In this document: piece after piece, positions 5,645 through 40,700 of the stretch
Layout: each line of letters opens with the position of its first letter
How positions within the stretch are numbered: position 1 is the first letter of the stretch
Assembly: GCA_965178125.1 (NCBI GenBank)
Contig: OZ237735.1
Coordinates: forward strand, 1,178,001-1,242,000
DNA length: 64,000 nt
Source of the DNA: Bilabrum cf. latius
Taxonomy: Eukaryota
Direction: 5' to 3'
Made by a program: the position numbers and the translations under genes
The notes under the pieces: generated by a model
What the model was told of the DNA's origin: nothing
The model's database searches: none
The model's input: only the letters and a program-made list of their open reading frames with translations

Positions 5645-8600
5645 ATGGCTGCATGGGGCGACCATAACGTCTACACAAAGCTGTCTTTTTGCGTAAGCCT
5701 TTGCTTTTTATCACTGGTCGCAATGCTTGCGCGCGACGCAAATCCATGGGCCAGCATTCCGACCTCCAGAATCTTGTGCGTCCGCAGGTAAAAGCTCGAT
5801 CGCGGTAGGGCGAAACAGTTGCTTTGTGTGGAAACACACCTGCTCTCGGCGACTACGATGCGGAGCAGGCTGTCCAACTCTACACCACTCCAGAAGACTA
5901 CCCTGTGTGGAAAACACTGCGTCCTGTTGTTGTACCTCGTGGAACAGCAATACGTTACAAGTACATTATTATGTCTGGTGGTCGTCCATCTTACTGGGAA
6001 GGAATTGAAGGGGAGCGAACGGTGGTACCAACGTCTTCACGGATGACCATTGAGGATACCTTTGGCCGGCACGACGACGGTGATGATGACGAAGTCGAGC
6101 AGAGAGCCCCCATCCATTTGTCATCTGGTGCTACTGCAAAGCCTTCGGTTGGCTGGGCAGCGCAGTCTTCTAGCGGCAGACCTGCTGTGACAACCACAAC
6201 TCACGAGCAAGCAGCCCCACAGGCCGAAGGTGCATCACCATGGGCTGCAGCAGGACACTTGCAGCCACAACTTCAGCCATCCTTGGAGCAAACACCAAGT
6301 CCCATGCATGGTGGCAGCCCTGTGGATCGATCAGACGGGGTCGTAGGCCTTCCAGCATCCTTCATGCAGTCGCTCGGAGACATTGGGACGATCGATGCCA
6401 TCCCCGGCGTGGGAGCCACACAGGCCGCGGCTAGTGAGCCAGTGGACGGTACAAGGGGTCACACAGAGCGCAGTATCGAGGATGCAAGTGGCGGCGCCTT
6501 GGGTGCAGGCAGGACACTCGGTAGTCCGCCACACCAGGGAAGCACTGGGGCCGAGGCGGCGGCTGGGTCCAGCCACACTACCCCGGGTCAGACCGCCATT
6601 TCCGGCTCTAGCCATGCAGCGTAGGACCAAGAGCAGGATCCCTAGCCTGCTTTAGACAGGAGTTCTCCGGCGGTAGGACCTCGGGACGGCTCGGCACCCG
6701 CTTCTGACCCGGCCTTCTCCAGCACCCCGCAGCGGTCGAGGGAAGCGGCGTCGACAAGCCGGGACACCGACCCGGAGCCGCACCAAGCAGTGTCCAACGC
6801 AGAGCAGAGTGGATTTGATCAGTCTCCCCCGGGCGCATCAACCCTGGCAGTATCCGCCGGCGGTAATGCCGCAGGGGGCGAGCGGACTGACGCCCCCGTC
6901 TCTACCGCGCAAGCTTCTCCCGCTGCAAAAGCCATGCTTGAGGAACCCGCTGAGAGCCAGAAGAGCAAGATTCGCCGGCTCATGAGGGGCCGCAAAATGA
7001 TATGCGTCACGTACCACCTGCCGGTCATCCTGAGGCGAGCAGCAGGAGGGGTGGGGCAATGGACTGCTCAGTGGGACCCTGACAGCTTCCTGGCTCGAAG
7101 CGATGAATCGCTCGCGGACGACACTGACATGCACTGGGTCGGAGTGGTCACTCGAGAGTGCATGGATCGCGTCACTGCGCGAGAGTAGGCGCGGCTGCGA
7201 AGGCACAGCGTGTCGTCTCACGGCTCGAGCGCAGTGGGGGCTGCGATGGACGCTGCCGTGGACTTGACGGCCGCAGACGGTGGACCCAAGCTGCTTCCCA
7301 CCGTGTCTGAGGATCGGCAGGGCCGGAATCGCTCGCTGTCGCAGACAATGTCAGAGTGCAGTGACGACGGCGAGGGCCCCCCTGACCGCTGGGAGGATGA
7401 AAGCCTGCGACTGAGCCTTGCGGACCGGCGCGGGATCACGAAAGCGCTCAGTGCAATGAAGGTGACCCCGGTGTTCATGGACGATGCTGTGCGCGAAGAG
7501 GCCACCCGCAGAATTGAAGGCAGGCGTATTTTGTAGCGTGGGATTGCCCGGAGCGTGGGAAGCGCGAACGTGGCTGCTGGTGGGTCAGCTGCGGTGCAGC
7601 AGCTCCGCCAGCTGTCCGAAGGACTAATGGGCGGCCCGGTTTCGGTGGGCTGGTCTCCCACCCTAGGGCCGGGCTCTGCTGGCCGCGATACAGGCGGGGA
7701 CTTGGACGGGGGTCCGTTGCCTGGCGCTGCCGTGAGCTCAGCCGCAGACCTGGAGGCAGCTGCAGGTCGCAGCCTCAGTCAGGACCTCTTCGGAGGCCGA
7801 GGGTCTGTATGTGGTAGCGAGGGGGAAGGCAGATACTCTCGTGAGGACGGTGCGCAACGAGCAGGCCAAGCAGATCCCGTAGCCATGGCACGAGCAGTCA
7901 TGGGTGTAGCGCCGTTTGCGGATGGAGATCACGGCGGGTTCTTCGACGACGGCGACTACGATGAGTCCGCTGGAGAGGAAGATGACGACGAGGGGGAAGA
8001 AGGAGGAGAGGACCCGAATAGGGAGCGGCCATCAGGTGCCACTGAAGGCGGTACAAGCGGCCACTCGGCCAGCGTGGCGGCTCACCCCGTTTCTGCCCCT
8101 GCGTCCGACATAGTGTCTGGCTCTGACAGTGGCGTGGAAGCTCCAAGCAGGGCGCCCAGGGCGATGCGGGCGGCAGACCGCCTGTTCAAGCTCTTCAATT
8201 CCTTCTGCGCCACGGTGCTGCGGCCTGCGCTGCACAATATTTTGGACACGGGAGACGACTTTGTCTTTGCCGACGACGCACAGGCGTCGCTCGGCAGCCC
8301 AACCGCCGCGTAGCGGGCACTCAAGACCCTGGATCCTCCTGACAGCGAGTCGAAGATGATTTGGGGCGGGCCGTTTCACCCGGACGCAGAAATTGCGGGC
8401 GATACAGACCCTTTCTCAAGTTCTAGCCACGTGGCAGTTGCGCGTCGTGGATGGCGCGCCTACGTTCGTGTGAACGAGCACGTCGCCAAGGTAGTCCGCG
8501 GGATCGCGCGGTCCGAGGACGTGGTGTGGACACACGACCACCACCTCTGCCTGGTGCCTGCCATGCTCCGCAGGCTGTTCCGGGCGGCTCCATCCCTGAT

Positions 8601-11600
8601 TTACTTTATGCACTAGCCCTTCCCTACTTCTGAGATTTTCAGAACGCTGGCGGCTAGAGAGAGGCTGCTGAGGGGAATGCTCTCTGCAGACATCGTTGGG
8701 TTTCACGCGTTCAATCACGCGAGGCACTTTCTGCACGCATGCAAGCGCACGCTCGGCGTGTCTTTTTCCTCTAGGACTGGAGGTCGCATCGGTATCGACT
8801 GGGACAGCAAGGACATCATGCTCGCTATTTCGCACGTTGGTGTAGATGCCGGCAGGCTCAACAGCCACATGCGCGACCCCGACACAGCTGCCTTTGCAAA
8901 CGAGCTGAGGAAGCGGCACAAGCGTCGAATCGTAATCGGAGGGTTTGATTCTTGCTAGCGACTGTCTGGAGTGGCCTTGAAACTGCTAGCCTTCGAGAGG
9001 CTGCTTGAAGACAACTCCGTGTACCGCCACAAGGTGGTTCTAGTGTAGCGGTGCGAGCTGCAGCACTCTCGCGGTGCTGACTACAGGCGCACTTCCCAAG
9101 AGCTCAAGTATCTAGTGGAGCGCATCAAGTCTAAGTTTGGGCCTGACGTCATTGACTACCAGGAAGCCGTCTCCTACTCTACGACGTTTCGGGTAGCCCT
9201 CTACTACTGCTCGGATGTGCTTGCGCAAGTGCCAGTGCGTGAAGGCATTAACCTGCTGCCTCTCGAGTACGTGTACTGCAGGACACGATGGCAGAACGAA
9301 CGAGAGGAGCTGGACAGAGCAGCGGTACAGGCCTCGGCTGCACAACACCCTCGCCGGCGGAGATCAAGCGAGGGAACAAGAGCATCAGATGCATTCCGGC
9401 GGTCCGGCAGCTCGCCGCACCTTGGCTCTGGTTTTCAGCCGTCCGCTGGTTTGGTTGGACTCCATAAAAGCCGCCCCGGCCCTCGGATCGGGCGCTAGGC
9501 CTGGTCTACACGCGGTCGTCGGGGTGGGGATTTCCCTCGGTCGTTCCTTGAGTCTGGCGGCATTAAAGAGGAGGATGACGAGGATGAGGAAGACGAGCCC
9601 GCTCGGTCCCCTCAAAGCAGCTAGAGAGTCTTTGGATCCACGGCTACTGGCTCTGGGGTGGCTGTATCTGGCTCCCACGCGTCGCTTGCTTCCCAGCAGG
9701 AGGCCCAGCGGTAGCAGAGCAACGGCTCTGTAGCGTCCACCCCCGTACTGCATGGGCAGTCAGTTGGCTCCACCCATGCTGTTGGAGCAGTCGGTGGCAG
9801 TGGCAGCCCAAAGCAGGCCTTTGCTGGCATGCAACCGTTCTCGCTGGACGATGTGTCACAGGGCGAATCGTTGCAGCAGCCTTCTTTTCCTTAGATGCTG
9901 CCCGACCAGCCATACGGAGAGGACGGTGGCTCTGGGGACGCCATGGATGATTCGTTTGAATCAGAAGCTGACCAGGGTCCGGTAGAGACCAGCGATGATG
10001 TCGGGGACATGGGCGACATGATGCAACGATCGGCATCCTTGCCGGACTTGCTCGATGCACAGATCAGCTCGGAGCCGCTTGAGCTGACTGCGCCGCTCCC
10101 GCCTCCACGGCGTGCCGGCTGCTTGGTGCTGAGCGAGTTCTCTACCGCAAGCCACGTCATCAATGGCAGCATCAAGGTGAACCCATTCAACATTCCAGAA
10201 GTCACGAACGCTTTAGACACGGCCGTGCTGATGCCCGCAAGTGAGCGGGCTACCCGGCAGTGGCGAGATTTCTAGTATGCCATGCAGAATCCTTCCAAGC
10301 AGTGGGCCCGCCAAGTCGTGATCGACGTGATTCAAGACAAGGAGCAGCAAGGTGCAGGGGCGTTCCAAGGCCTGGAGGGCTTCAGCCAGTAGAGTCAGCG
10401 GCGCATCACTGTAGGGAACGACGAGAGCTCCGCTGAGCTGGCCAGGCTTGACGTGCCACGCACTGCGGTGAATCTGCAGAGGTCCCGCCGTCGTGTAATC
10501 CTCGTCGACTACGGTGGCACTCTGGTAGAAAGGGAGGGCATTGGTACCTACATCAAGCACGAGTTCTTCGGCAAGAGCCAGGACAGCAGCACAGCCAACC
10601 AGATGTCTACCATGGAGATTCAGTGCCTCAGATACCTCTCCGACGACCCACACACGATGGTTGTCGTGACTACGGGGCTGAATACCTCACAGAAAGAAAT
10701 TGATCGGCTTCTTGACTTGCAGAACATCACCGTTGTGAGCGAGAAGGGTATGCTCATCACCTGGGGGGCGCGTGCGAGGTACACCCCAGCTGCCCGCAGG
10801 GCAACAATTGCGTATCTGCGCAGCCAAGGCCAGGAGCCGACTCAAGACGACGGCGGGCCGGGCCGTGAAGGAGAAATGGAGGGGCTGGCCCCGCCGCTGG
10901 TGCCGCCTGCCGCATTCTGCGAACCGGGTGAGACTCAAAAGTTCATTGAAGCGGGGAGGGCTTAGACCGTAGCTTCCGGTACTCCTCCTGCGACAGGGGC
11001 TGCGTCTGGACGGTCCGTAAAAGGTGCTGCAAATCGCGCAAGGAGCCAATCCTACGGGAAGCAGCTCAATCCCGGTCCTGAGTCAGCCTCTCCGGGACGA
11101 GAGCGGCGTACTGGTCGTCTTTGGCTCCCGCTGTGGCTTGCAGTCAGAGATCCTACCCCGAGCTAGACCGGTTCAGGGGCTGCATCACCCATGGTTCCAG
11201 GCGTTGCCGGCATCGCAGCGACCGCAGCAGACAAGGCTGCTGTTTCAGGCATGGGTCGAAGGCAGGCAATGCTCGCCCCCGAAAACATGGTGGATTGGAG
11301 AACTCTGGCGAGCCGGGCGAAGGCTGTCATGGATGCTTATATGTGGAGGGTGAACGGCAGCCGAGTGCGGGCGTACCCATACGTTGTCGCGTGGGACTAT
11401 CGTGATGCAGACCCAGAGTGGGCATCTAGCCAAGCCGCCTTCCTTGAGGCAGACCTGCGGGCTGGGCTCAAGTCGCAGAGGGTGGGCATACAGAAGCGTA
11501 GTTCCAGGATCGAGGTGTTCCCGCTTGGGCTTGACAAGGGCGCGATCGTTGATGCCGCCCTCACTGTGTGGCCATGTGCCGACTTCTTCCTTGCAGTTGG

Positions 11601-11955
11601 CGACGACCAAGCCGATGAAGACGTCTTCCGTCGCCTCATGGACGTTTTATCCGAGCAAGATGATGGCGATGACCGCCGCCTTGTGACACCCTCAGCAGGT
11701 CGCAGTGGTACACCCGGGAGTCAGGTCGAGCCACCTGGCATCGTTCCAGCGGGGTAGGAGCAGAAGAAAGCTTCGGGACTGCGGACTCTGTACACTGTGG
11801 CCGTAGGAAGAAAGCGTACTAGCGCAAGGTTCTACGTACAAAGCCCGAGGGAGGTCAACTATGTGGTTCGTGCGTTGGCTGCAGCCCTGCCACAGAGGTA
11901 GATCACACCTTCAGTCCGTGTTGCTGCGCGCGTTGGTGATGCAGTCGAGTCTTGA
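5645..11955 (+). CDS. TPS: CBM20 + trehalose-6-phosphate synthase (GT20) + trehalose phosphatase (HAD) fusion, ~2070 aa
   Basis: Exon 1 is 5645-5692, followed by an intron 5693-5787 (gtaagc...cgcag). One frame then runs 5788-11955 to TGA with 19 in-frame TAG (hand count) and no TAA/TGA. CBM20: FCVKARSR*GETVALCGNTPALG..YPVW..IRYKY. GT20: WTHDHHLCLVP, FMH*PFPTSEIFR, LSADIVGFH, EGINLLPLEY, LVLSEF, VNPFNI. HAD: ILVDYGGTL, DKG, LAVGDDQADEDVF, VGRKRTSARFYV. Confidence 0.93.
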
Positions 11956-22678: not shown

Positions 22679-23707
22679 ATGGAGTCTCAGCCAAAGTCAG
22701 CCCAGAGAGCCCCACCACCAACGCTACAGGAGGCACTCGATCATTTGAAATCAGGACTGAGCGACGCGTGAGCGGAGGGTTTGTTTCTTGCTTGCCATGC
22801 AGAGGTGCATTCTTTGCAAGTCAATCGTTTCCTACTACGTGATTCTTGACGCAGGTCACGGGCTGTGATGCACTTCAAGCGAGCTCTTCCCAAACTTATC
22901 CGGAAAGAGGTGCAATCCCAGGTTGAGGCCCAGCTCAAGCGTGAGCTGAAGAAGTAGCTGCAGTCTGCAGTTGCATCTTCTGTTGCTGACGCAGTCAAGG
23001 CTGGCGAACCTGCCAAGAAACGCCGCAAGGTTGACAAGTCGGATCCAGACTACATCAAGAGGCCCCAGAGCTCATTTTTCCGGTTCATGGGGGAGCACAG
23101 GGAAAAGGTGAAAGAAAAGATGCCCGATGCTGGCAACTAGGAGATAGTCTAGGCCATCAGCGATCTGTGGAACAATTTGGACGATGACAAGAAGAAGCCT
23201 TATGTCGAGGCTGCCGAGAAAGACATGGCCGAGTACAGGGAGGCCAAGGCCGCGCAGCAGAGCGCCACCGAGAGCAAGAGCGCGGCGTCGTCTGACCACG
23301 AAGATGGCAGCGCCAAGATGACAGACACTGGCGATGCTTCGGACGCGACCGGGGTCGAAAGCAATGACGACAACTCCGAGAGCGATGAGAGCGATGACGA
23401 CGAAAGCGATGACGACGACAGCGATGGCGATGAGAGCGATGACGACGACAGCAGCTCTCGCCAGACGCCACTTGCGAGCAAGGCCAAGCCCAAGAGCCGC
23501 AAGTCTGGCTCCAAGTCCAAGTCCAAGGCATTGTCCTCGTCCTCCTCCGCCTCGAGCAGCAGCAGCAGTGGCGCGGCTTCTCCCCCTCCAGCCCCAGCCC
23601 AGAGCTCCCATGACAGCCCCTCGTTGGGGTCCAAGCGGAAGAGAGACGAGGCCAGCCCCAAGAAGAGCAGCAAGAAGAAGCACAAGAAGCACAAGAAGCA
23701 CCACTGA
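22679..23707 (+). CDS. HMG-box protein with acidic and Lys/Ser-rich tail
   Basis: ATG 22679, intron 22768-22854. HMG box DPDYIKRPQSSFFRFMGEHREKVKEKMPDAGN*EIV*AISDLWNNLDDDKKKPYVEAAEKDMAEY contains two TAG (23138, 23150). TGA stop at 23705. Confidence 0.88.
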
Positions 23708-24054: not shown

Positions 24055-25181
24055 TCAGACGTTCTTCTTGAAGCCCCCACTGGCAGAGGCAGCGGCGTCG
24101 TCATCGAGGCTCGCCTCCCTGTCGAAGGCCTGCGCCCTGTCGTGCTCGCCCACCTCACTCTCAGCGCCAGCGGCACCTCCCAGCTGCCCGCCGATCTCCT
24201 CTGCCATGTTGCGAGCCGTGTCGAGGCCCTTGCCGACGGTCGTGTCGATCTCCACCTCGTACTTGCGCAGCAGGCCGCGCAAGAAATGGTTGTACACAAA
24301 CTCGGCTCCCTGCGCGGATTGCATGTGCGCAGCACTTAAATAGACAAGCATAACATAACCGACCACTCCTTGAGCAGTGGATGAGCTGGGCGAACATCAA
24401 GCCAGGAAGCCAACGTGGCAGGCATTTGCTTGGCTGGCCAAAGACCACGGCCTGACGCACGCGACCGATCGCATCACGCGCTGGAACAATGTAATTCGCC
24501 GCAACTTACCTTAAACTGGGGCACTTGCAGCGCGATAACGAACAGAAGCTTCAGCGTGTAGTAGAATGGCACCCTGCGAGCCCACAGAAGAAAATCGAGA
24601 ATGGAACCACGAACTGAATACAAACGAAATGCGCGCGACGATAGGCGTGCTGATTGAGTCCAGCATCAAGTTCTTACCATGTAAGAATGAACCCAACGAA
24701 ATTCTCGATGAGCTCAAGAAACCCGAAAACTACCCAGTACGCGAGCCTGCGAATCAGAGGAGCGACAGAGGCAAGCACGAGGCGACTACCTTCAGGGACC
24801 AATTCGGACGGAATGCATGCGGTAAATGCGATCAATTTGGCAGCAATACTCGAAGAGAGTGGTCTCTCACCACTGCCTATCGTCAGCTGCATCGCGGCTT
24901 TCGATTGCCTTGAACGATTGGTATGCCGGTACAGCGAAGCCAATCAGTGTCGTGAGGAACTTCATGCCAAACCCGAAGAAAACGAACATGAGGCTAAGCA
25001 CCATTGCGCCCAATGCAAGATAGACGCGCTTTACGCCAGTCGCCTCGTGTGCCTTGTCTGCCAGCGACACACCGTCCAGGCGCTTGTCCCAATCTTCAAG
25101 CTTCGCGTTAACCTGCTCTAAAGTTTCTTGGGTAAAAAGCTGCATGATCATGTCTTGCATACCCTGCTTAACTTCGGACAT
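24055..25181 (-). CDS. REEP/DP1/Yop1/HVA22 family ER-shaping protein (multi-exon)
   Basis: LIGFAVPAYQSFKAIESRDAADDRQW | LAYWVVFGFLELIENFVGFILTW | GAEFVYNHFLR are the characteristic TB2/DP1 blocks. TGA stop at 24055. Confidence 0.88.
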
Positions 25182-25439: not shown

Positions 25440-26435
25440 ATGAGCAGGAAACTATACAATGCATGCAGTCGCACAAACTTGCTTCCCATACAGGCAGGAC
25501 TTTTGTCTGCGTGGTCAAAACTACGAGGAGCCGTGCTTGATTCTAGGGAGCCTTGGCGAGTTGGCTGCCTTTCAACAGTGCGGCTGGAATCAAGGCATCC
25601 TTCGCCATCGAGCCGAATGATGGTGCTTCGCAGTATATCTACGAATAATGGAATCCCTGTCCTCTGCACGAACGCCGATTCGCGATCGCCAAAGGCACAA
25701 CAACTCGAAGATAACCCTTCCGCTTGCTGGCTGTTCTACGACGACTTTCAAAAAATGCAGCTTCGAGTGTATGGAGAGGTTCGCCAGGCAGACCATTTGC
25801 AAGAAACTGCTGCATGGGATGGGGTGTAGCCATTTGCCAGGCGGTGCTATGTGCAGCGACAAGCACCGTCGAGCGTGCTCCGCTCGGCCAGTTTTCGTAC
25901 CGAAACTACAAGTGGCCGTACTACTAGTAAGAGTACTTGCGCGGCTGTGGACAGCAGCAGCGACGACGAACACGCCAATATTCCAACGGCTCAGTGGGAT
26001 GTACCTGTATCTCCTGTCACCGGCACGAAGATAAGCGGAGACATCGACGGAACAGCTCGGAGCATGGCATCCCGTGCTGGGGGGCAAGCAATGCCGCAGC
26101 AAGTGGTGGATTCCTCTGTGCATTGGACCCCGGAGATGTCTGCCTCTGGCAGGGACAATTTCACCAGGCTGGAGCTGCTCGTGGGTCGCATGGACTGGGT
26201 GTGGCTGGGGGCTGGCGGTCATGTGCGTGCGAGGTACGAGTTCGATCGGGATGGTGCCAGCGGGGGTGAAGGGAACGGCCTGAATGAAGACCTGCAAGTA
26301 CCCGCAGATGTCTTGCGGGAGCTAGGTGTGAGCGATCGAGCGCTTCGCAAGATGGCAGTAGGCGAGGGCCAGGAATCGGACACGATCGACGTCTCCGTTC
26401 CGGTTCCTCGCTCCTGCGAATGGCTTGCGCCATAA
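25440..26435 (+). CDS. Pyridoxamine 5'-phosphate oxidase-like FMN-binding protein
   Basis: LSTV..PSSRMMVLR..TNADSRSPKAQQLEDNP..WLFYD..QLRVYG, NFTRLELLVGRMDWVWL..HVRARY and terminal WLAP. The two track ORFs join across TAG 25827. Ends in TAA at 26433. Confidence 0.82.
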
Positions 26436-26676
26436 TTGCAGTGCTGCCATCGCATCATAGTCTCGGGATGCACATCCACCCAGTCGACAGGGTCGCTGTG
26501 CAGCTAGTAGCTGATCGGGGCATTGTAGAAGCAACGGGTGAGGCGGCTTTCCAGCTGCAATAAAAAGTATGCTCAGCAAGCATACCAGAATTGAAATCGA
26601 TTGAGATGAAGCACAAAACTAGTTGCCTTTCGGGCAAGGCCGGGGAACATTAAAAAGTAGCGAAATCAACGCCGCT

Positions 26677-27936
26677 ATGTCGTCAAAAGCAGGAAAATCT
26701 CCGTTTAAGTTTGATGAATCCCTTATGGGACCCGGTGGCTTGGTCGTTGGAGGAGCCACGAAGGAGTCTCAGGGTGTAGTGTACTTGTCGCACTTGCCGC
26801 ACGGCTTCTACGAGGATCAAATGAAGGGTTTCTTTGGTTAGTTCGGCACAGTATCGCGCCTAAGACTTGCACGAAGCAAGAAAAGCGGTCGATCTCGCGG
26901 GTACGCCTACGTAGAGTTTGCCTCCAAGGCGGTTGCTGATATTGTAGCCACCACCATGAATGGTTACTACCTTGTGAACAAGTACGTTCGTGCCCGGAGC
27001 CTTAGCGCTGATCAGGTCCACCCTAGATTGTTTGTTGGAGCACACAGAAAGTTTCGGTGGATCCCGTGGAGGCTGAACGAGAAGAAGCGCAGAGAGAAGA
27101 CAGTCTCAGCCGAGTCGCTCGACCGTCGCGTCCGGAAGCTTCTCTCCGGTGAAGTCAAGCTCAGGAAGGCTCTGGAAGAAAAGGGAATTGATTATGCATT
27201 TGGTGGCTACTCGGAAGCTGTAGTACGCGCCATTTAGCGCCGCGAGGAGCTTCTTGAGGCTGGAGAGCTCGCCGAACCCGCCGCCGCGCCGCAATCGTCG
27301 TCCTCAGCTGCCGCATCTGCCGCATCCGGTGCTGGGTCCGCATCCTCAGGCAAGGCTGCGAGCAGCAGCTCCGCGGGCGATTCTGGCGAGGAGCTTGACG
27401 ACGAGGGGGAGGACAGCGAGGGCAGCGAGGGAGAGGTCGACCTGGATGACGAGGAGGCGATGCTCGCTCGCCTGGAGAGGATCGTTGGCACCGGGCCGGA
27501 CAGCGGGGGCGTGGTGCTTGAGGCTGAGCAGGTGGCCACTCCCGCAACTCCGGCTAAGGGAGCAGCAGGGAAGGGTAAGAAGGGTGCGGGCTCGGGCGCA
27601 AAGAAGAGCACACCGGCTTCCTCCAAGGCCTCGGGCGCAAAGAAGAGCACACCGGCTTCCTCCAAGGCCTCGGGCGCAAAGAAGAGCACACCGGCTTCCT
27701 CCAAAGCCTCGGGCAAGAAGAAATCCGCCGGTGCAGCGTCGGGCTCGGCAGGCACGAAGAGAAAGCGGTCATAGGGAGATGATGCAGGCGCCAGGACGCC
27801 CAAAGGATCATCAGGCAAGAAGGTCAAAGGCTCAGCTGGCAAGAAGGCAGTGTCAGGGGCAGGGTCGGCCAAAGGCAAGGGCGAGGGCAAGGGCAAGGCC
27901 GGGAGCGCCAGCAAGCGCAGGAGGCTGGAGAAGTAA
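26677..27936 (+). CDS. NIFK: Nop15/NIFK-like nucleolar RRM protein
   Basis: [60 protein letters not shown]. TAG 26839 occupies the Gln of the conserved F-x-Q-F-G. Further TAG at 27235 and 27772. TAA stop at 27934. Confidence 0.9.
27591..27714 (+). repeat. 39-bp coding tandem repeat, ~3 copies (SGAKKSTPASSKA)
   Basis: ctcgggcgcaaagaagagcacaccggcttcctccaaggc is repeated three times in the NIFK Lys-rich tail. Confidence 0.9.
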
Positions 27937-28120: not shown

Positions 28121-31100
28121 TCACGGCTGCTCGGCTGGCTCCTTGACCGACTGCTCGGCTGGCTCCTTGACCGACTGCTGGCCAATCCTAGAGCTGTCCA
28201 GCTGCAGTTCAGGCGATTCGGCGCCACGGCTACCCGCCCGACTCACCCTCCCGCCGTGTTCCTTGGTTGGCGTGCTGAATCGGGTGAGATCCAAAGCATC
28301 ACCCCTCGCGACACCCGCCTCTGGCATACCATCCGGGGACGCTAGCCGCAACTGCTCGGGTGCTGCATCTCCCTCGTGCACAGCGGTGCGAGCTGGCCCT
28401 GTTGCCCCAAGGATGCTGGTCCCTGTGGTTCTCTCCGGGTCGGCCGAGAGCTCCGACAGCTGGCTGCCAGCCTCCTCTGGCTGCTCCTTGCCAGCCGCTG
28501 CCTCTGCGACATCGCCACCTTGCCTCCCCGCAGGCAGCTCCCCCTCCTCGGCGACCAGCCCCGCGGCCTTGTGCCGCTACCTGCCCCGCCACACCGCCGC
28601 CCTCCGCTCCAGAAATTGTAGCTGCGCCTCCAGCTCCTCGCGCAGCACCGCGCCTGCCTGAGCCTCCATCACGCGCAGCACGGCCCCGGACACGAACGTG
28701 ACGTAGTCGTGCAGGTCGAGGTGCGAGGAACCGCTATTGCTCCTGGATCGCTTCCGCAGAACCACGGAGGAGCCCAGCTCGGAGGCGGGGCTTGACCCGG
28801 CTGAGGCTCCGCTACCTCCTCTCGACCGGCCGTACGACGGAGACCTTGATCCGCCATGACGTAGAACGCTGCTGGTGCTGCTGGTGCTGCTCGAAGCCTC
28901 AGCGCGGCGCGAGGCCCTAGTGTCCAGAAACCGAGCCAAAGCGCTCGACTCGTTGGCATCTGGCAGCAGCACGCCACTGTCGGCGCGCTCCTGCTGCCAA
29001 GCAGCTCCGCTCCCCGAGGATGCGTCGACGCCAGCAGCATTGACGACGGAATTGCCCGCAGGTTCGATTGCAATCGAGCTGCCACGAGCCCCACTTGCAC
29101 CTCTCCCGCCCCCATCCGGCAGGCTGGCCCCGTCACCCAGTGCCTCCTCCTCCACGTCCTCGCTAATCACGTCTAGCAGGTCACGATCCCGCGCACGACG
29201 TAGAGACATGACGCCCTCGAGGCCTCTGCGCGCCTCCGAGCGCCACGCCTGCAGCTGCTTCCTTGGTGGCCTGGGGTCCAGCTCGGTTGACCCTGCCATG
29301 GACAGGGCGGGGTCCCAGTGCAAGGGGGATCGCCGTGACCGGGCCAGCTCAGAACCTGCGTCTCGCCGCAGAACAGCAACAAGCTCTGCAAACCGCTGGG
29401 TCCTCCGGCGCACGATGAACCTGCACGCGTCCTCCACCCGGGTCGCTCGAATGAGACCGGCGACCAGCTCGACCACCGCAGCGTCCTCGGCGTGCTCCTC
29501 GGCGGCGCGCACCTTTGTCTCGGCAGCACCACCGGATGCTGCCCTCAGCTGCTGGTCCAGCGGCGGGGCTGCAGCGTCGCGCTCTAGGACTCGCCGCACG
29601 GCTGGTGAGCAGCGCAGCAGGCGGGTGCACCTGCGCAGAAACCGCCTGGACGGCCCGTCCTCTGTGCTGTCTACCACCAGCACTCCGTAGTGCTCAAGCA
29701 TTCTCCTCACCTACTTCAGCCCTCGGCCGGCGAAGCGCACGAGCACTTCAAACTGCGTGACTACGTTGGGCACCCCCTCTCCGAGGATCCGCGCTAGATC
29801 CTCTCTCCTAGCTCTGATCTCGGGCGCGTCGTCCCAAGGAGGCAGCTCGTCCAGCTCCGCCTGAGCCAGCGACGTGATGCGGTGGGACACCACTGAAGCC
29901 TCCACGTCTTGCGTGCGTATACGGCCGCGCAAGCTGTTCATCGCCTCCTGTTCCGCCTATGGGTCCGGCGGTTTTTGCTGCGGCAAGTTCTGCAAGAGCC
30001 ACAACGACCTAGATGTTGCGTCGCACATGATCTGGTACAGCCTGCCGGCGCCATGGGGAGATCTGTCCTTGCCTGCAGCATGCATCCCACTTGAGTTCGG
30101 GCCAGTCTGCTACACACCGTCTGCCGAGAGGAGGCTTTGCGATGCGCTCCGGCCTGCGGCCTGCAGCTCCGCCACTGACGGGCTTCCACCTCCCCTGCCT
30201 TGTCCACTGTGTGCTCCCACTGCGCCGTAGCTACCGCGGGACAGGCTGCCCGCAGATGACAACGACCCTTGGCGGGATCTGCCCAGTGCTTCTCCGCGTC
30301 TCGCAGCTACGCCCGAGTGAGGCGCGCCAGCCTGCCCGTTCTATGCAGGTGCCCCATGGGCAAATGGGCCCGCATAACGCTGTGTCGCACTGCTGCTGCT
30401 GCCGCCGGCTCCATGCTGCCCGACTTGGCGGGTCGCGGGCGGTCCAGACTACGAGGATGGCGGCAGAGCAGCCGGCGGATTGGCAGACGGACTCGGCGCT
30501 TTCGCCGTGCTGGAAGACCTCAGTCCGAAGAAGCCGGCAATCGTCCACTCCTCGTCCTGCTCCTGCCTGGCACCAGCCCCCCCGCTGCCAGCCCCTGGGA
30601 TAGCAAGGGACGAGACACCCCGCATCTACTGGCGAGCACCAGCACCGTGCCACGTCCCGGCTCGGGCTGGCACTCCTGCAAGCCCACCTACCGGCATGGA
30701 CCCAAACCGTGCACCCGCCATCCGCGCGCCTATCCTTGGGGCACCCACGCCAGACGACGCCGCACCATGCCTGAGCCCCGATCGCTTGGGCCCAGCTGGC
30801 AGTAAGTGAGCATGGCTGCCAGCTGGGTGACCCTGCCCGTGGTGTGGGTGCTGCACAGGCCTGGCAGCATATCCATGCCCCTACCCCTACGTATGGCCCA
30901 GTCCATATCCCCACACGTGAGGTGCATCTCCACGGCCCGCGCCGGTGCCACCGGGATGATCCATTCCCGCTGGCCGCCCGTAGGTTGATGGTGTATGGAT
31001 ACTGCCTTGTTGAGGCATGCGATAGGAGCTTACTCTCTGGATTCCACCCGCTGCCGCAGCCCCAGACTCCGAAGCAGCGACAGATCCGAGCCCGACCGAC

Positions 31101-31471
31101 ATGACGCTTGCGGACCGAATCGAGCCGCCATCGGACGTACCACTTTTCCCTTTGCGACGTTTGCGCCTGCGAGAGCTCTTCTAATGGCTGTGCAAATTTC
31201 TCTCCTAAAATCGGCGAGCGGTTTCCTGTTCGTACTCTTCTGGCGAGATTTTGCCTTTGCGGACAAGCTCCAGCAAGTGATCTGGCAGCTGCGGTAGCGC
31301 TGCTAGAACTCCGGGTGCATTCGCTGGCGGTAACGATATCTTGGCCCGTCTCCGCCTTCGCCTTTTGTGCTTCTGTGAACCTGTTGTGCTGCTGGTTACG
31401 CTGCCATGCGCTGCGGGCGAAGCGGCAGCAGCCAAGTCGCCGGATACCATGCCCACTTCACCCGGCACCAT
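28121..31471 (-). CDS. Hypothetical protein, ~1110 aa
   Basis: ORFs 31205-31471, 30887-31102, 30626-30856, 29711-29941, 28577-29710 and 28121-28381 are one frame; the large gaps checked contain only TAG. TGA at 28121. No recognised domain. Confidence 0.65.
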
Positions 31472-31727: not shown

Positions 31728-34700
31728 AAATACAGAAATACAGAAATACATTGTTGGGTAAAGATTCCACAAGCACCCAGATGCACCGTTGCCCCCGAAG
31801 GAGTTCGAGTGATCACCTGAATCCAGAGGAGTCCTCAAACAAGGACTACAAGACCCCCGACCCTTTCAGGCCAAAGGCCCCCCAATCTCAGCCTACACCG
31901 CCGAGTCCCCTTTATTCGCCATCAATGTGGTCCCCCACAAGCCCTCAGCCTGATGCCTTCACAGGGAGAAAGCATACAGGTGCGGAGCATGTGCCCGGCA
32001 CAAAGCGCGGTCCAGTCCCACATCAGGGTCCCCTGCCGGGACCCACCATTTCCTCCTCCATGACCGTCTCTGCGTCTCACGATCCTTCAGAGAGGCTAGC
32101 ATGCACGCGCTCATGCCTTTGGCCCATTGCCTCTCTATGTCCCTTAGCAAGCCGTGGGGCTTAAACATCCGTCGCTGTAGCCGAGCGTTCGCATTGGTTG
32201 CCGCTATCAGCTCTTGCGTGGCCGTGGCGGCAAGAGCAGCCGCCGCATCGCCTCGCATCCACTGCCTGCACGTCAGCTACTCCTGCTAGCGCAGCTGGTT
32301 CCTGATCACCTGCACCACTCGGTTGGCCAGCTCCTTGACAGCTGTCCGTTCCGATGACCGCGCAATCGTACGCTCTATCCGAGTGAGTGCGTCTTCGACG
32401 ATTGGCTTGGCCCTGCTGGTGCGCTCCAGCTTCTCGTCCCAAGGGTCCTGAGCGAGAGCTGTCTTCGCCCATGCTTTCCGGAGGGAGGCAGGGGACCTCC
32501 CTCTATTCTGATCCGCATCATCGGGTTGCCACGGTCTCGTTCCGGCATGATGGTCATGCTCGGCCCGCTCCATCTGCTCTACCGCGGTGCCCATCACTTG
32601 AAGGTTGGGCGTGCCCTGTTGCGGGTATTGTCCAGCTCGGATGCGCAGAATTCGTCTTCCTTGGTGGCCGTATTCCTGCACCACCGCTGCTGTTGGCATG
32701 GCTCCTGGTCCGAAGGCATACCGTCCCTTCGTTGCGTACCGGTTAAGCATGACCACTCCGAGCGCAGCTCTCTCCCGGTCCCAATCCGACAGTGCCGGAT
32801 CGTGCGAGCATCCCAGGCTCAGGCTTGTGAACGATCGGTCAGCAGCTCCGGATTTGGATTTCCTCCACTTTGTGCCTTTTTTTGCAGTCTCCTGGCATCC
32901 CAGCCAGTCCTTCGCGTCATCGATCCGGTGGGTCCACCCTGCCATCTTGATCCTGAATCCCAGTGCCAGCGCGGCCCCGAGTGGGCCTGTCTGTACTGGT
33001 GGTCCCTGCAGGAATCGGCCCTGGTGGATGAACCTGGCCGCAACATCAAGGCCCTTCTTCGAGGGACACTCGATCAGGTCCAGCAGGCCCATAGCAACAC
33101 GCCCTGCTGCCGATGCCGTCAGCAGCTCAGTGTCCATCGCAAGGTTTGGCACGTATCGACCGCCCATGGTGAAGGGCCTTACCTGTGTCGATCCGCTGAC
33201 AATCATCCAGCGCGTATCCAGCAGGAATTTGTCCAGCATCTTGAGGACTTCCAGGTTCAGTTCCATCCCGTAGAAAACTTGGGAACCATATCCTAATCCT
33301 GACAAGGTGTCCCATCCTGTTGCACATGCCGCTGCCTCTGCTCCGTAGAATGCACTCGTGATTGCTCCTGCATGGAGCAGCTGGGCGTGCAGGGAGACCG
33401 CCCAGTTGCCGTTCACCGCCGCTCGTGTGATGTCCCTGGCCGCCCGGTACGCCATCGCAATCCTCCTGCGTACGTGGGGTGCCATATCAATTACCCAGAT
33501 GTCTCTCGCCTGCGTCAGCCCAGCTACTTCATCTGGGCTGATCCGTACTGGTTGGGTCGAAATGAGTAGACCGAGGTACAGGTAGGATGAGGCAAGTGGG
33601 ATGGTCCACTCCCCATCCGTCTCTCCCGCGTCCGCTGCTCTGCATGCGACGCCCTCTGGCATGTCCCCAGGAATTGAGTCCCGAGCGTAGCCAAAGGCCA
33701 TGATCGCTGTCTTGGTTCCCTGGCCCGATGCTGTCAGGGGCTTGATTCCCAGCTACATGCCCGCAAGTGCAAACAGGCTCTTGACTAGCTTCATGACCGC
33801 CACTGCTTCGTTCCAGTTCGACGTCAGTGCCACGTAGTCGTCTGCGTACCCGACTTGTCCACATTCAACGTATCGTCCGGTGTCGGTCACGATCCTTTGA
33901 TGGTGCCCGTGCTGGAGCCTCTCTTTCCGCAGCGTTTCCAGGAGAACCCCCATCAGTACCAGGAAGATGGTGGGAGACAGAATCTCGCCCTAGGGGGTGC
34001 CCGCCGTCTTCTGCACTCTGGTAGAGACCCTCCTGGTGAGTGGGTCTCGAACGCGGATGGCCACCTGCATGCGGGCCATGAGAAAGCGGACCGTCTGGCG
34101 TCCCCATCCTTGCTCCGTCATGATGGCCTCGATGATGTTCCACTTGCAACTGTCAAATGCTCCTTTGATGTCAAAGAATACCAGAAAACCTCCAGCACCC
34201 CTTCGTTGGGTAATCCATTCCATCACCGCTGAGTAGGCCTGCTGGCAGTTCTTGCCGATGCGAAATCCGGCCTAATCCTGGCCGAAGAGTCCGTGGTTTT
34301 CGCAGTACCACATGACCTTCTGGTTTGCGATGGTGCTTACGACCTTCGAGAGAGCCGAGGTCCAGCATATTGGCCTGAATTCGTCGACTCCTGTGACTCC
34401 TGTGCCCTGCTTGCGCTTGGAGACCGGCCGCATGAACCCCTCCTGAAAGGCCTCAGGCTGAATCCCCGAGAAGAGTGTGAGATTATAAATGGCCCTGAGG
34501 AGGTCCAACAGAGCGTCACTTCGCCGCAGACACCCGTCCTCCTCAGAGCATGGCTAGCATTTGGTCAGCAATTCCGCCCTGATCCCATCAGGTCCCACAG
34601 CTTTGTTGTGCTTGAGCTTGTCCAGTGCTTGATCCACCTCTGCGTTCGACCTGCAGAATAGGTTGAGCGGTGTCGCTGCCCTGGGCATGTGCGGCGCAAT

Positions 34701-37360
34701 CCTGGCCATAAATCCGCCCACATCCGCACTTCCATTCCCACCTGCGTGAGAGAGCTGCTGTGCGTGTGCCTCTAGGATATCCTCGACGGCCGTAAGCACC
34801 TCTCCGCCTAGGTTCGTGATTGGTTCCAGTCCTGGTGCAGCTCGTTGCCTTCTAGAGATTGCATCAGCGATCTATCGGTGGGCTTCCCTCGGACTTGCTG
34901 TTCCCAGCATGTTCCGCAGTGCGTGGCCCGTCCTGCGTGCCCCTCGCTCGGTGGTCTCGAAGACAGCCCGTCGATCATGGTCCAGGTTGGCAAGGAGCAT
35001 CGTCCAGTACTCCTGTCCCTCATGGGCCTACTGGTTCACCTCTGTGCTCCCCCAGAGTGTTGCCTGCATCCGTCCATCTAGCCCCCGCTGTCGCCCTTCG
35101 AGGCGCAGGCTGGCTCGGCGATGTGCAGCCAAGCATGTTCTGGCCTCTGAAAGAGCTTGTTCCGTGGTTGGTCCCGCGATAAGGGCCTTGAGGCTGGCAT
35201 GGGCTTTTCCCCACGTTTCAGCCCATCTCGTCCGTGCCGCCCAGGTCCTGCGGTGGCGCTTGCGTGACGCTTCCACGTGCCCGGCCTGGCCGGTGTTTGC
35301 CATTTGTCGGCCTGTAACAGTCTCGGCTGCTGCCGTGAAACATCCTTGCAGAAGCAGTTTGACGGAGGACACGGCCTGCGTAACCGCTTGCCCTGCAGCC
35401 TCTCGGTCAGCCGAGGTTCCCGTCGAGCTTTTGAGGTCGCGAATTGCGTCGAGCACACAATGAGTGATGTCGCGGACTGCACTTGTAGCCTACCCGAATT
35501 CCTTGACGTAATAGTCCCAAACCAGGCGTTCTTGCTGCACATGCATGTCGGACACCCGTGAGTACGCTGCCCTGAAGGGGGCGTCATCGTCCTGCTCCGT
35601 TGTTGCTGGGACTGCAGTTGCTCGCGTTGCCGGGTCCTCCACTTCTGGGACTGTGACCAGCAGGTCTGCAATCACCCCCGTGTGGTCTGAATATGTGCCT
35701 GGCTCTTGAGCCACTTCACTGGACACTAGCTGCAGCTGCGCAGAAGTGGAGATGCAGATGGCATCCAGTGTGTTGCCTCCTCTGTGCGTAGGCCCGCCCC
35801 CTGCAGGTGCTCGGTACATGTCGATCATGCCCATGTCGTTCTCCAGATACCAGTCCATCTGACCAGCTCCCTCTTGGTCCCGGGCCTACGTCGGGTTGAA
35901 GTCACCGGTAACCACAAGTCGGTCCCTGGTGAAATTGCCTGCCGGTCCTTGACTCCGTCGCTGTCCAAGGGTCAGCTGGGGATCGACCACGAAAGCCTTG
36001 CCCAATACTGAGCCCCTTGTCTCTGCCCCGAGGGCAGCCCCTTGCGGTGGGTTGTAGCAGGCTATCACCGTCAGCATGCGTCGGTCGTGGTGCAGGACGT
36101 CACATACGAGGCAGTCCGGCGCATCCAGGTCATCATCTCCCATGTCTGCCCACCGTCTCAGTACGAGGCCTGAATCTCGTTTGACGGCGACGCATACCCC
36201 GTGTGGGGCTCCGTTTCCTGCCCTCGTCTCCATCGCGTACAGGTCCGGGACGTCAGTGACGTAGCGTCCTCTAGCATCCTGTGTCTCCGTGCCAACAAAC
36301 ACATCGGGCATCTTGGTCTCCGTAAGGGCAACCTCCATCGCTTCGAGGTTCCCTTTGCGTCCCAGATTTTTGGTTGCAATCCTGACGTACTTGGGCGGGG
36401 TCGTGTCCATGATCCTGATCTGATCCCAGCCCCCGCGAGTACCTTGGACGCCTCGTGGCTGATGTGCCGTGCTTGTCCCGGGGGCGACTAACCACACAGA
36501 TTCTCGGTCCCCCACTACCGCATTGCGGTTATTGATCCAGGGGAAGCACTCCGGTATCCAGGTCCTGTCGGTCCTCTGCTCATCCGTAAGCATCACCCGG
36601 AGAGCTCCAAGCAGTTCCGCCCCGGTCACTCCGTCCTCCCATTGGTCTCCTGGGCGGACTGATAGGACCATGACCGGTTCCTCGTTCAGTTCCCCTCTCG
36701 TTGACAGCGTACGCACAACTCTGGCATCCGCATCTCCTTCCTCCTCCCGTTGCTCAGGTCGCAGCACCAGGCAGGCGTGCCTCCGGGACCCGTGTCCACC
36801 CGGCGGATTGATTCCTGTAGGGATGAAGACCTCACAGTGGGTGCGGGAGATGGCAATATTCATCGTGCCCTGGATCGCTTGGTCATCGGTGGCGTCCGAG
36901 TTGAGTCGCTCACACCAGTTGGCAAGGCTGGTCCCCTCTTTGTCGGCTGGGTGGAGTCGCACTGAACCCCCTCGCTGCTGTGCCAGGGCCATCACTGACA
37001 GTGTGAGTCCTCGCAGGCTAAGCCCGTGGATTCCTTCCCCTTCCTCGCCAAAATAGGTGCGGAGTGTGTGCATGATGGTGGAGCTGGGGTCTAGGCCAGC
37101 TAGAACGGCGAGGGGGAGCTACGCGCATCCCTGCCAGCCTAAGTGCTCTGGCGGCCCGAAGAGGTTACCCGTGCCTACCACGAGTGGTTCAAATGCATCG
37201 TACGGAGTAGTCAGAAGCGCAGTTCCTCCGCCGCCGGGACTCCAGAGGCACTCGGCCACACTGTGTGGGATCGACGTCAGGGTTTCCTGGAGGGACTTGC
37301 TTCCGGACGAAAATGAAAAACCGTGTAGCCCCGAGTCCATTCTCATACTCAGCGGTAGAT
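31728..37360 (-). mobile_element. Non-LTR retrotransposon (APE endonuclease + RT), apparently intact
   Basis: The 3' end carries a (TGTATTTC)n octamer tail starting at 31728. The element contains a single APE-RT ORF and is bounded by CGCTT at 31723-31727 and 37361-37365. Confidence 0.9.
31959..37346 (-). CDS. LINE polyprotein: N-terminal region + AP-like endonuclease + reverse transcriptase, ~1795 aa
   Basis: APE: IATKNLG, PDVFVGTET, GVCVAV, VIACYNPP, VVTGDFN, TLDAI, SDH. RT: NKAVGPDGI, FRPIC, D*AGFR, FFDIKGAFDS, GTP*GEILSP, YADD, YLYLG. One frame from ATG 37346 to TGA 31959 with at least 11 TAG and no TAA/TGA found. Confidence 0.9.
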
Positions 37361-37753: not shown

Positions 37754-40700
37754 TTAGACTCCCATCATGTCGACCGTTGCCCCGCCAATGCTCCGCATCG
37801 TGGTGGAGGTCACCTGCCGCTGGGCCTGGCTCTGGCTCCCGCTCCCATCCGCCGGCGCGATGCCCCTGCGGTACGAGCGGGGATACGACAGGGAACTCTC
37901 GGAAGAATCGTACCGCATGGCACCACCGTGCCCTGCACCTGCACCTGCACCCGCGCCTGCACCACCCTGCCCTGCACCTGCAGGATACATTGAGGTGGGC
38001 GATCCGATCCGAGACGTCGGAGAGCCGACCCCTCGCCGCGTGGCCTGGCTGGGTCTCATCCTCGTGCCCAGCCCGCTCGCACTCGTCACACCATCACTCG
38101 TCACACCGTCCGAGGGCATCTTACCGGGCATGCCACTTCCACTGTTTCGTCCCGAAGGAGAGAGCAGCGAGCTCGGTGGCACATCGCCCCCCCTTCTTCT
38201 CTCCATTGCATGCAGCATGCTACCGAGGGCCAGTGGATCCGCAGATGGGACAGCCTCCACCCCTGGCACTCTTGGATCCCTCGCAGTGCCTGCCTCCACC
38301 CCGCGCCTCCTCCCGTGACTCGGCACACGGTCTTCATGCAGCAGCTGGACCCCGCTGCGGCTAGTCTCCTCAACACCGCTGCCCATGGCTTCGACCCTGC
38401 TCCTGTTCCTGCTCCTGCTGCTGCTGCTGTCCTCGCCCATGTACCGCAGTCCGGCCTCTTGCCTGTGTGCCCGGCTCGTCTTCCTCTTCCTCCTCCCCCC
38501 TCCCCTGCCATCCCCCTAACTGTTCCCTGCGAGCAGCAGGCACCCCGTCCCCGATGACGAAGATGAGCCGCCGCCGTCCCCTGTGCCATCCCCATCCCCA
38601 CCGCCGCCGGCGCCCACTCGCCCCCTCCTCCTCCTCCTGGACTCGGAATCACCGGTCATGCTGCTGCCCGAAGCGGAACCAGACGGCTGCGTCAGCGCGG
38701 CGCCAGACCCAGACCCAGACCCAGACCCAGACCCAGACCCGACACCGCTCCCGCTCCCGCTGCACCCGCTACAAATCGCCCGAGTCCTGGCTGCTGCCAG
38801 CTCGCGAGCCATGACGACTAGCACCAGACCCAGACCCAGGCGCAGCAGCAGCAGCGGCCATTGGAGCTGGCGCCCATCCAGGACCCGACCGCGGTTCAAT
38901 TCCATGTATTCCATGTACTGCTTCGTCGCCGCCGCTGTTCCTCTCCCCCGATTGCAGCCCCACTGGCAGGCTGGGAGGCACCATGTCAAGCTCGCTCCAC
39001 CCGTCACCTGTGTCCCTGTGGTTGCCAGCACCGCCCCCCTGCCCCCGCCTGCTGCTCGTGCTGCTCTCCTTGGACGTGTACTGCACCCGCAGCAGCCGGG
39101 ACCCGCTCGTCACCTCGTGACTTACGTACCCGCCCTGCCTCCCCCCACCCTTGTTCCCCTTACGACCACGCTGGCGCTGGCGCTGGCGCCTTCGCTCCTC
39201 CTCGGCCTCCTCGCCGGAGCTATCCGAGAAGCTGCCGGATGCAGCGAGCTCCATGGACTTCCGGCCCAGTCCCCTCGAGCTTTCGTGCCTCCCCGGTGCA
39301 TGCCGGCCCCGCTCCAACGCAAGCACCCCATCACGGGGACGGCCCCGTCCCTGTCTCCCCTTTTTGCGTTGCACTATGACGTCACTGCCGCGGCTAGAAT
39401 CCCGCTTCGACTCGGGCGTCTCGGCGGAATTGAACCTCCGCACTGACCCTGACCCGGAGGCTGACCCTGGCTCGAATGCCAGCCCGCTGGGGCGAGAGGA
39501 CTCGGAGCCGGAGAGGGCAGGTGCCTCAGCACCTCTGCATCCCTGCGGTTGGCCCTGGCGAAACCCTCCACGTGGGATAACGGCTCCGAGTCGGGCGTCT
39601 TGAGCACGTCCTCCCTTAGGCCCAGGCGCCTCTGTCTGGATGAAGCGATCGAGGAAGATCGGTCATGATCGGGGTCCTGGTCACGGTCCTGCCAGGCGCC
39701 CTCGGTGGTTTCGGAGGATCCTTGGCCGAACGTCCCCCCACTGCGACTCTTCTGAGCACCAGAGACTCCCAGATCGATCAGGGGCACCAGGAATGCCGGC
39801 TGCCCCTGCCCCTGCCCCCGCCCCTGCCCCTGCCCCTGCCCCTGCCCCGACTCATGGGGGCGAGACTAGCTGTCCTGGTCCGGGTCGCCGGTGGCGTGTG
39901 TGTGACCTGTACCACCATGTGATGCACCCTGCGGACGCCGAGGACCCGTTCGTCGCAACCTTGACCCCTGCGCGGCGCCACCGATGGTTCCGCTCGTGGA
40001 GCCGGTGCTCGGGTCTGAGATCCCAGTCACATCAGCCTCTCTGAATCCCGATCCAGTGCCGGCCCCACTTCCGCTGCTGCTACTGCCCGTGCCGGTGCCC
40101 GTCCCGCTGGACCTCGTGGTGGACCCAGCGACTCCCGCCTCACCTTCATGCGAGCCCTCCCCCTCCCCCTCCCCCTCCTCCTCCTCCTCCTCCTCCTCCT
40201 CCTCCACCACCTCAGTGAGCTCCACCAGCCTGCCGCTGCCCCCGCCCACAGGATCCCTCTGAGCACCGAGGTACTTGACGATGTTCGGGTGGTCCAGCTC
40301 CATGAGCAGCTTGATCTCCTGCTGCAGGGCGCACACGAGCTCCCTCGTCTTCTCGTCCAGGCCCTCCAACAAGGACCCCTCCAGTGCGGAACCTCCGCGC
40401 GCGGCGCCGCCCATGGTAGGACGCCGCCTGGCTCTCCTCCCGGACTCCGTGTTCCTGCGGTAGAGAGGCACCTGCTTGGCTGCCATGGTCCGTCCATCGT
40501 CCTGGTTCAGAGCGTAAAAGACCCTGCCAAACGCGCCCGAGCCGAGCAGCGCGCCCCGCTTCCATGGGACCCTGCCCATTGCCTTCGAGGGGCGCTGGCC
40601 GCTGGCTGGATGAAGAGATGCCAACGGGACGACCCGAGAGGGCAAGACTGTCGGTGCGGGGAGTAGAGAACGCTATGCTGCGCCATTCGGAGACTCGTTC

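Follow-up and report, generated by a model that had tools for sequence, protein, structure and literature searches.

The DNA considered here, 64,000 nucleotides of contig OZ237735.1 in assembly GCA_965178125.1 (positions 1,178,001 to 1,242,000 of the forward strand, hereafter the window), is about 60% guanine plus cytosine (GC) across its length. It is very probably nuclear DNA of a protist, GC-rich and with few introns, that is probably a stramenopile and a relative of Cafeteria and whose genes are written in a code where UAG specifies glutamine and UAA and UGA are the only terminators, the arrangement referred to as 'table 15' or the Iotanema type. The separate fates of UAA and UAG are what set such a code apart. 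One release factor recognises both codons, and both are usually decoded by a single tRNA through wobble, with the consequence that their meanings nearly always change together. In the code where both stand for glutamine (UAR=Gln, NCBI table 6), which is used by many ciliates, hexamitid diplomonads, some ulvophytes, aphelids and oxymonads, UGA is the sole stop. That TAA still stops is hence the point needed to name the code of the window as table 15 in type and not table 6, and it is supported here by the distribution of stop triplets in reading frames and by a TAA that falls at the C-terminus of a protein family in a gene for a PNPOx-like protein.

TAG as a glutamine codon

Under the standard code the window contains seven frames of at least 500 amino acids, which together amount to 4,962 amino acids. 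When TAG is read through, so that only TAA and TGA end a frame, there are 19 such frames with a sum of 21,159 amino acids, the longest being 2,096 amino acids, whereas reading through TAA instead of TAG leaves the tally of long frames unchanged. Ordinary eukaryotic genes are recognised by Pfam in the frames obtained by reading through TAG, and these include:

5746..11955, plus strand: CBM20-TPS-TPP fusion gene (TPS in what follows), 2,069 amino acids with 19 in-frame TAG codons, ending in TGA; Pfam CBM_20, Glyco_transf_20 and Trehalose_PPase; 120 homologues
25440..26435, plus strand: PNPOx-like frame (Pfam Pyridox_oxase_2), 331 amino acids with lineage-specific inserts, ending in TAA
26677..27936, plus strand: frame for an NIFK/Nop15-like RRM protein, 419 amino acids; Pfam RRM_1; NIFK/Nop15 orthologues in the PDB matched at E 1.8e-30 to 6.1e-25
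31959..37346, minus strand: retroelement frame with a reverse transcriptase, 1,795 amino acids with 11 in-frame TAG codons, ending in TGA; Pfam RVT_1

Codons were counted over twelve frames that are either long or supported by homology, a total of 15,055 codons. Within them TAG occurs in frame 117 times and TAA and TGA not at all, whereas off frame, in the two other readings of this DNA, there are 262 TAG, 92 TAA and 565 TGA triplets. Set beside 190 CAA and 444 CAG, the TAG codons make up 15.6% of the 751 codons for glutamine. They are spread evenly along the genes, such that the 100 TAGs of the eleven frames that reach a stop fall 22, 18, 21, 19 and 20 to successive fifths of frame length.

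What TAG means is best judged from the alignment columns in which it stands. The codons that were compared with homologues or known structures are:

8956..8958, plus strand: TAG at TPS residue 1071, a column with Gln in 49 of 57 homologues
9046..9048, plus strand: TAG at TPS residue 1101, a column with Gln in 55 of 57 homologues
26839..26841, plus strand: TAG at NIFK residue 55, a column with Gln in all 64 homologues, as also in three aligned orthologues from the PDB
33990..33992, minus strand: TAG in the P-Q-G motif of the reverse transcriptase, at the position of its Gln; Gln in both PDB chains shown (R2 and LINE-1-like)
34272..34274, minus strand: TAG in the Q-x-G-F motif of the reverse transcriptase, at the position of its Gln; Gln in 8c8j_A and, by alignment, Ala in 9nl2_A
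25827..25829, plus strand: TAG at PNPOx-like residue 130, a variable column (P 30, S 26, R 25 and Q 20 of 150)
27235..27237, plus strand: TAG at NIFK residue 187, a variable column (K 27, gap 16, and A, Q and E 5 each, of 64)
27772..27774, plus strand: TAG at NIFK residue 366, in a Lys-rich tail that is unconserved

Conserved glutamine columns are thus occupied by TAG in three unrelated genes, those for TPS, NIFK and the reverse transcriptase. The columns in which glutamine is not the rule are variable positions, where other residues in homologues are to be expected and the TAG lends no support either way. Comparison with homologues therefore supports TAG as a sense codon whose meaning is glutamine.

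TAA as a terminator

A count within frames that are themselves delimited by stops is in part circular, and this circularity is removed by restricting the count to spans bounded on both sides by homology. Such spans comprise 4,153 codons and contain no in-frame TAA or TGA. Their expected number of TAA codons is 15.5 from a CAA:CAG ratio of 59:122 (P ~2e-7), or 12.7 from the off-frame rate, and for the twelve frames together the ratio of 190:444 leads to an expectation of about 50 (P ~2e-22) where none is observed. The claim of the original prediction that no in-frame TAA lies inside a conserved domain thus holds over both sets of codons, and the supported coding spans of the window are free of internal TAA at conserved columns. 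Taking TGA as the sole stop fuses no supported gene across a TAA; the long frames that then include TAA are antisense shadows of real genes, 5' leaders, or 3' extensions of the PNPOx-like and NIFK genes.

The ends of genes lead in the same direction. There are 12 complete 3' ends with support in the window, ten of which are TGA and two TAA, with none at TAG:

TGA ends: TPS, the 12040 frame, a HOOK-like protein, an HMG protein, the spliced gene at 24055, the 28121 frame, the retroelement, the 41959 frame, an Ulp1 protease and an ankyrin protein
TAA ends: the PNPOx-like protein and NIFK

An earlier tally had given 17 termini, 14 at TGA and three at TAA, and it is the dominance of TGA that survives from it and not the numbers. 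Many true C-termini at TAG would have pointed to termination that depends on context, and among these 12 ends, a small sample, there is no such terminus.

The PNPOx-like gene and its C-terminus

The PNPOx-like frame contains one in-frame TAG and ends with ...SCEWLAP followed by TAA at 26433-26435 (plus strand). Its family match is to PF12766 (E=4.8e-10; 40.4 bits against a cut-off of 26). Searching 1.84 billion representatives in full with HMMER at E<=1e-3 returned 1,353 homologues, and of the best 150, aligned with MAFFT, none has residues beyond the last residue of the window protein and 137 share its final proline. The motif W[LIVMA]xP is C-terminal in 121 of 149 homologues, and in the twelve window proteins, which amount to 15,067 residues, it occurs only once, at the C-terminus of this protein. 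A relative of 75% identity is likewise terminated by EWLAP. Reading through the TAA would add 52 residues before a TGA at 26592, an extension found in none of the 150 homologues.

The predicted structure gives a similar answer. In an AlphaFold model with a mean predicted local distance difference test score (pLDDT) of 81.9, residues 325-329 form the terminal strand, and residue 331 is matched to the residue that ends 2ou5_A (Z 17.0, root-mean-square deviation 3.0, 175 residues aligned, model residues 4-331). In the PNP oxidases of E. coli, human and yeast its partners are residues 218, 261 and 228, respectively (Z 13-14), which are the ends of the aligned ranges and which we take to be the final residues of these enzymes. 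The product is thus predicted to be a PNP-oxidase-like, FMN-binding split barrel with a C-terminal W-x-x-P strand. By sequence and predicted fold the TAA coincides with the C-terminus of the family, as had been claimed for the WLAP-TAA ending, and it does so in a single gene.

At 331 amino acids the protein is long for its family, where the median of 149 homologues is 206. One insert, at about residues 150-229, is predicted to be disordered, and another, at about residues 277-324, to be folded (pLDDT 81-93), with two helices flanked on either side by a strand. A search of PDB sequences with the protein matched its N-terminal part only.

The 75%-identical relative is represented by the protein P0123, a fragment of 198 amino acids which is matched by 25851-26432 of the window and starts a few codons past the position of the window TAG. 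Such a fragment is expected if a gene caller set to the standard code had cut the gene at an in-frame TAG, and the relative probably shares the TAG code.

These results bear on the reading that UAA and UAG both mean glutamine, as in the table 6 code of ciliates and hexamitids, and that TAA is merely rare in genes through the high GC content. A base composition of about 60% GC is what this account calls for, TAA is indeed the rarest of the off-frame triplets (92, beside 262 TAG and 565 TGA), and the supported TAA termini number only two. The account nonetheless has very little chance of being right, given that CAA is not rare (190 against 444 CAG), which is why some 50 in-frame TAA codons would be expected where there are none, that the TAA of the PNPOx-like gene follows what is the family's last residue by sequence and fold, and that the 52 residues gained by read-through have no counterpart in the family. 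The window thus agrees with table 6 in its use of UAG for glutamine, at conserved glutamine columns, and departs from it in lacking TAA where 15 to 50 were expected and in having one TAA at a defined C-terminus. The original prediction had set the code apart from UAR=Gln, and the comparisons support both that distinction and continued termination at UAA. It had also described the evidence for termination as direct, which overstates a case that is comparative, not proteomic, and that includes one TAA end defined by homology.

NIFK and its TAA

NIFK has three in-frame TAGs and ends with ...RRRLEK followed by TAA at 27934-27936 (plus strand). Both this TAA and the presence of internal TAG in the two TAA-ended genes had been noted previously, with coordinates that are correct. 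The next in-frame stop is a TGA at 28144, which lies 68 codons further on and inside the convergent neighbouring frame 28121-31645. As a terminus the NIFK TAA is weakly supported.

Within the tail of the gene a unit of 39 base pairs is repeated 3.2 times at 27591-27714 (98% matches) and encodes a repeated SGAKKSTPASSKA stretch. Among the RNA-type contigs listed over NIFK, all end at 27620, at this repeat.

Introns, RNA-derived contigs and doubtful gene ends

Spliced joints are found in contigs of the runs X5, X6 and X7 and in none of those of the DNA run X1, and the RNA nature of the former three runs is taken solely from these joints. The spliced features are:

22768-22854, plus strand: intron upstream of the HMG gene, 87 nucleotides, GT..AG
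24055..25181, minus strand: HVA22/TB2-DP1-like gene with three introns seen in spliced contigs and a TGA stop at 24055-24057
24310-24509, 24574-24677 and 24747-24870, minus strand: introns of the 24055-25181 gene, joints 24308/24509, 24572/24677 and 24745/24870, CT..AC ends

The family name attached to the 24055..25181 gene is one that we presume from a sequence motif. The donors of the four introns are GTGAGC, GTAAGT, GTAAGA and GTGAGA, and the acceptors are all GCAG. The genome is therefore intron-poor and not intron-free, and since introns here can begin with GTAAGT, frames that end in TAA at such a sequence have to be treated with care.

For instance, a third TAA terminus had been counted previously, and the candidate for it is doubtful:

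39122..39124, minus strand: TAA at the end of a frame with a kinase N-lobe, context GGTACGTAAGT, including the splice-donor-like GTAAGT

As GTAAGT is one of the four donors supported by spliced contigs, this TAA is more likely to be intronic than to be a terminator and it was left out of the count of gene ends. A second doubtful TAA-ended frame is 37754-38914 (minus strand). The kinase-like frame, 39122-40963 (minus strand), holds an N-lobe only (Pfam positions 3-43 of 263), which is followed by long low-complexity sequence, and no further part of the kinase domain emerged when 37400-40963 was scanned with Pfam in each of its three minus-strand frames, every stop being written as X. An open stretch in the frame of the kinase fragment, 37754-39109 (minus strand), follows after TAA..TGA. 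The fragment may be a pseudogene, a gene with an unmodelled intron, or an assembly problem linked to repeats.

Do the contigs of the spliced runs carry the same codons as the DNA? The PNPOx-like gene is covered by an X5 contig (25302-26645), which includes both its TAG and its TAA, and by an X6 contig (25354-25830), which includes the TAG, with no difference from the DNA in either. The conserved part of NIFK, at 26660-27620, is covered in X5, X6 and X7, again with no differences. Since UAG and UAA are unchanged in contigs of spliced runs, editing is not the explanation for the in-frame TAGs. More broadly, the chance that these TAGs are untranslated, whether as lesions of pseudogenes, errors of assembly or codons edited to CAG in RNA, is close to negligible. 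Such an account could appeal to the many window proteins that are orphans with long low-complexity inserts. It is at odds with the count of 117 TAG against no TAA and no TGA, which isn't a pattern expected from decay or sequencing error, with the occupation of conserved glutamine columns, and with the agreement, without a difference at any TAG, between the X1 DNA contigs and the spliced contigs of X5, X6 and X7, which come from different studies.

Evidence that weighs against the proposed code

A number of observations weigh against UAG as glutamine with UAA and UGA as the only stops. With respect to TAG, the column at TPS residue 957 is one where TAG is present and homologues do not have glutamine (I 22, V 16, A 12 and S 6 of 57), and the TAG at residue 95 of the HMG protein is aligned with lysine in three PDB alignments. 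One TAG lies 18 codons upstream of the TPS stop, in a poorly conserved part covered by five of 57 homologues, and a terminating role for it is possible. As for TAA, there are two supported termini of which one, that of the PNPOx-like gene, is defined by homology, and the sample consists of 64 kb and 12 ends; rare or context-dependent read-through of UAA is possible. The tail of NIFK is unconserved after about residue 200, so its TAA is a terminus without definition by homology. For the PNPOx-like protein, the local alignments made by phmmer break off near query residue 277 in 148 of 149 homologues, which is some 55 residues short of the stop, and in no homologue do they extend to the end. An insert of about 50 residues stands before EWLAP, and it is consequently the four-residue motif, together with the global alignment and the modelled fold, that carries the terminal match. 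In addition, read classification labels X5 'probably DNA', and none of the listed runs holding this DNA is recorded as RNA. Finally, neither of the two genes that such a code would involve is seen in the window: ARAGORN, and Rfam at gathering thresholds, detected no tRNA gene in the 64 kb, and Pfam detected no eRF1 gene among the frames of the window, to which this search was confined.

The TPS-tail TAG and the limited number of termini, 12, are also what can be said for context-dependent termination of the Condylostoma or Blastocrithidia kind, where UAG, or UAA as well, would act both as sense and as stop according to position in the mRNA. This alternative has a slim chance. TAG termini are absent from all of the supported ends, TAGs are even along the frames and neither pile up nor become depleted towards the 3' end, and TAA and TGA are missing in frame while being present 92 and 565 times off frame. 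Very short 3' untranslated regions are typical of context-dependent codes, whereas the contig over the PNPOx-like gene extends 210 nucleotides past the TAA, with three more in-frame TAGs before the next TGA. A fixed assignment, with UAG as glutamine and both UAA and UGA as stops, remains the preferred explanation.

How UAG and UAA might be separated

Under the fixed assignment UAG would be decoded by a tRNA-Gln with the anticodon CUA, which would pair with UAG and not with UAA, as suggested by analogy with the argument made for Iotanema (PMC5304391). Such a tRNA could most simply arise from tRNA-Gln with the anticodon CUG by one change. The release factor eRF1 would keep its recognition of UAA and UGA, with that of UAG lost or weakened; the N-domain features of eRF1 considered for Iotanema in PMC5304391 are the GTS, NIKS and YxCxxxF motifs and position 32. 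Pairing of a CUA anticodon with UAG only would be what allows the two codons to be uncoupled.

The closest precedent is Iotanema spirale, a member of the Fornicata. In Panek et al. (2017, PMC5304391), UAG is assigned to glutamine and UAA and UGA to termination on the basis of 204 in-frame UAG codons in 126 genes, with UAA at 104 and UGA at 15 of 119 termini, and it is reasoned that a tRNA able to separate UAG from UAA must carry the anticodon CUA. The two cases are alike in the meaning of UAG, in the stops UAA and UGA, and in the absence of in-frame UAA or UGA; a bona fide UAG terminus is lacking in Iotanema and is not seen among the 12 ends counted here. They differ in that Iotanema is a metamonad and the present organism a probable stramenopile, in that UAA is the main stop there and TGA here (ten ends against two at TAA) at about 60% GC, and in that the Iotanema case was built on a transcriptome only, whereas the present one comes from genomic DNA, in which there are introns and a TAG-carrying retroelement.

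Among ciliates, the phyllopharyngeans Hartmannula sinica and Trochilia petrani use UAG for glutamine with UAA as a stop, according to McGowan et al. (2024, PMC11687900). The same paper gives the UAG share of glutamine codons as 18.5-31.8% in Hartmannula and Trochilia, compared with 15.6% in the window, and has UAA ending 91.9% of genes in Hartmannula sinica with UGA rare, whereas UGA is the main stop here. UAG is assigned to leucine with UAA as a stop in the rhizarian exLh (PMC5304391) and in three TARA phyllopharyngean genomes (PMC11687900). Such codes share the uncoupling of UAG from UAA with the present one and differ in the amino acid, which is leucine there, the columns here being those of glutamine. 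Phages and giant-virus-like genomes have the same table, TAG for glutamine with TAA and TGA as stops ('code 15'), but those are viral genomes and the window is cellular nuclear DNA with housekeeping genes and spliceosomal introns. The uncoupling is thus not new in principle (PMC5304391, PMC11687900), and it is the lineage that is apparently new.

Placement of the organism and significance

The named TPS homologues among the matches listed are all stramenopiles, the best being from Cafeteria roenbergensis at 57% identity, and in a single-gene FastTree of TPS the window sequence adjoins the clade that holds Cafeteria. For NIFK the best named matches, with 47-49% identity, come from haptophytes and brown algae, which gives no resolution, so that TPS, as a single-gene tree, is the one source of the stramenopile placement. 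With moderate confidence, then, the organism is probably near the bicosoecids within the stramenopiles. Searches of metagenome contigs with the retroelement protein, and with an alignment of the C-terminal half of the PNPOx-like protein, confirmed no relative.

In the literature searched, to which subscription-only papers and supplements did not belong, no reassignment of a nuclear stop codon was found for stramenopiles or bicosoecids. It can be suggested, as a tentative proposal somewhat short of an even chance, that an independent and so far unreported change of UAG alone to glutamine took place in a stramenopile lineage near the bicosoecids. If so, this would be the first non-standard nuclear code of stramenopiles, and the first code changed in UAG alone that belongs to a GC-rich genome with UGA as its main stop, in which eRF1 would go on recognising UAA for the sake of few genes. 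The organism would then also be a candidate host for giant-virus-like genomes that read TAG as glutamine.

Changes confined to UAG are few and are those of Iotanema, of a rhizarian and of some phyllopharyngean ciliates. A further independent instance, from another supergroup and of opposite base composition, would bear on what permits the split, for which a tRNA with a CUA anticodon, specific substitutions in eRF1 and low prior use of UAG are candidate enablers. Whether UAA has to be the dominant stop for the split to occur would be put to the test as well, as UAA is a minor stop here and termination at TAA is maintained although few genes depend on it. On the practical side, gene callers set to the standard code fragment the genes of this DNA, and annotation needs TAG as glutamine with TAA and TGA as stops.

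Other features of the window

Further products of the window that are named by Pfam are a HOOK-like coiled-coil protein, an HMG-box protein, an Ulp1 protease and an ankyrin-repeat protein. In the TPS-TPP fusion, long low-complexity inserts separate the conserved blocks and bring the protein to its 2,069 amino acids; the homologues listed are mostly of about 1,140-1,700 amino acids, with a few of about 2,000 or more, such as the Cafeteria protein of 2,090. A search with the protein of 41959-46545 at E<=1e-5 gave no homologue, and it is an orphan at that threshold.

A unit of 21 base pairs is repeated 118 times at 49806-52285 (92% matches), where it forms an open frame of MEAASHF-like heptads with many spurious Pfam matches, and the repeat is more likely to be a minisatellite than a gene. 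Upstream of the gene at 2-4729, three open stretches at 4787-5707 (minus strand) are in frame with that gene and have only TGA codons between them and a lower GC content; the region is probably a leader or promoter shared with the divergent TPS gene. The retroelement at 31959-37346 (minus strand) has a summed contig depth of 150-1430 in the DNA run X1, compared with about 18.6 in its flanks. It is therefore multi-copy, and has apparently been maintained under the altered code.

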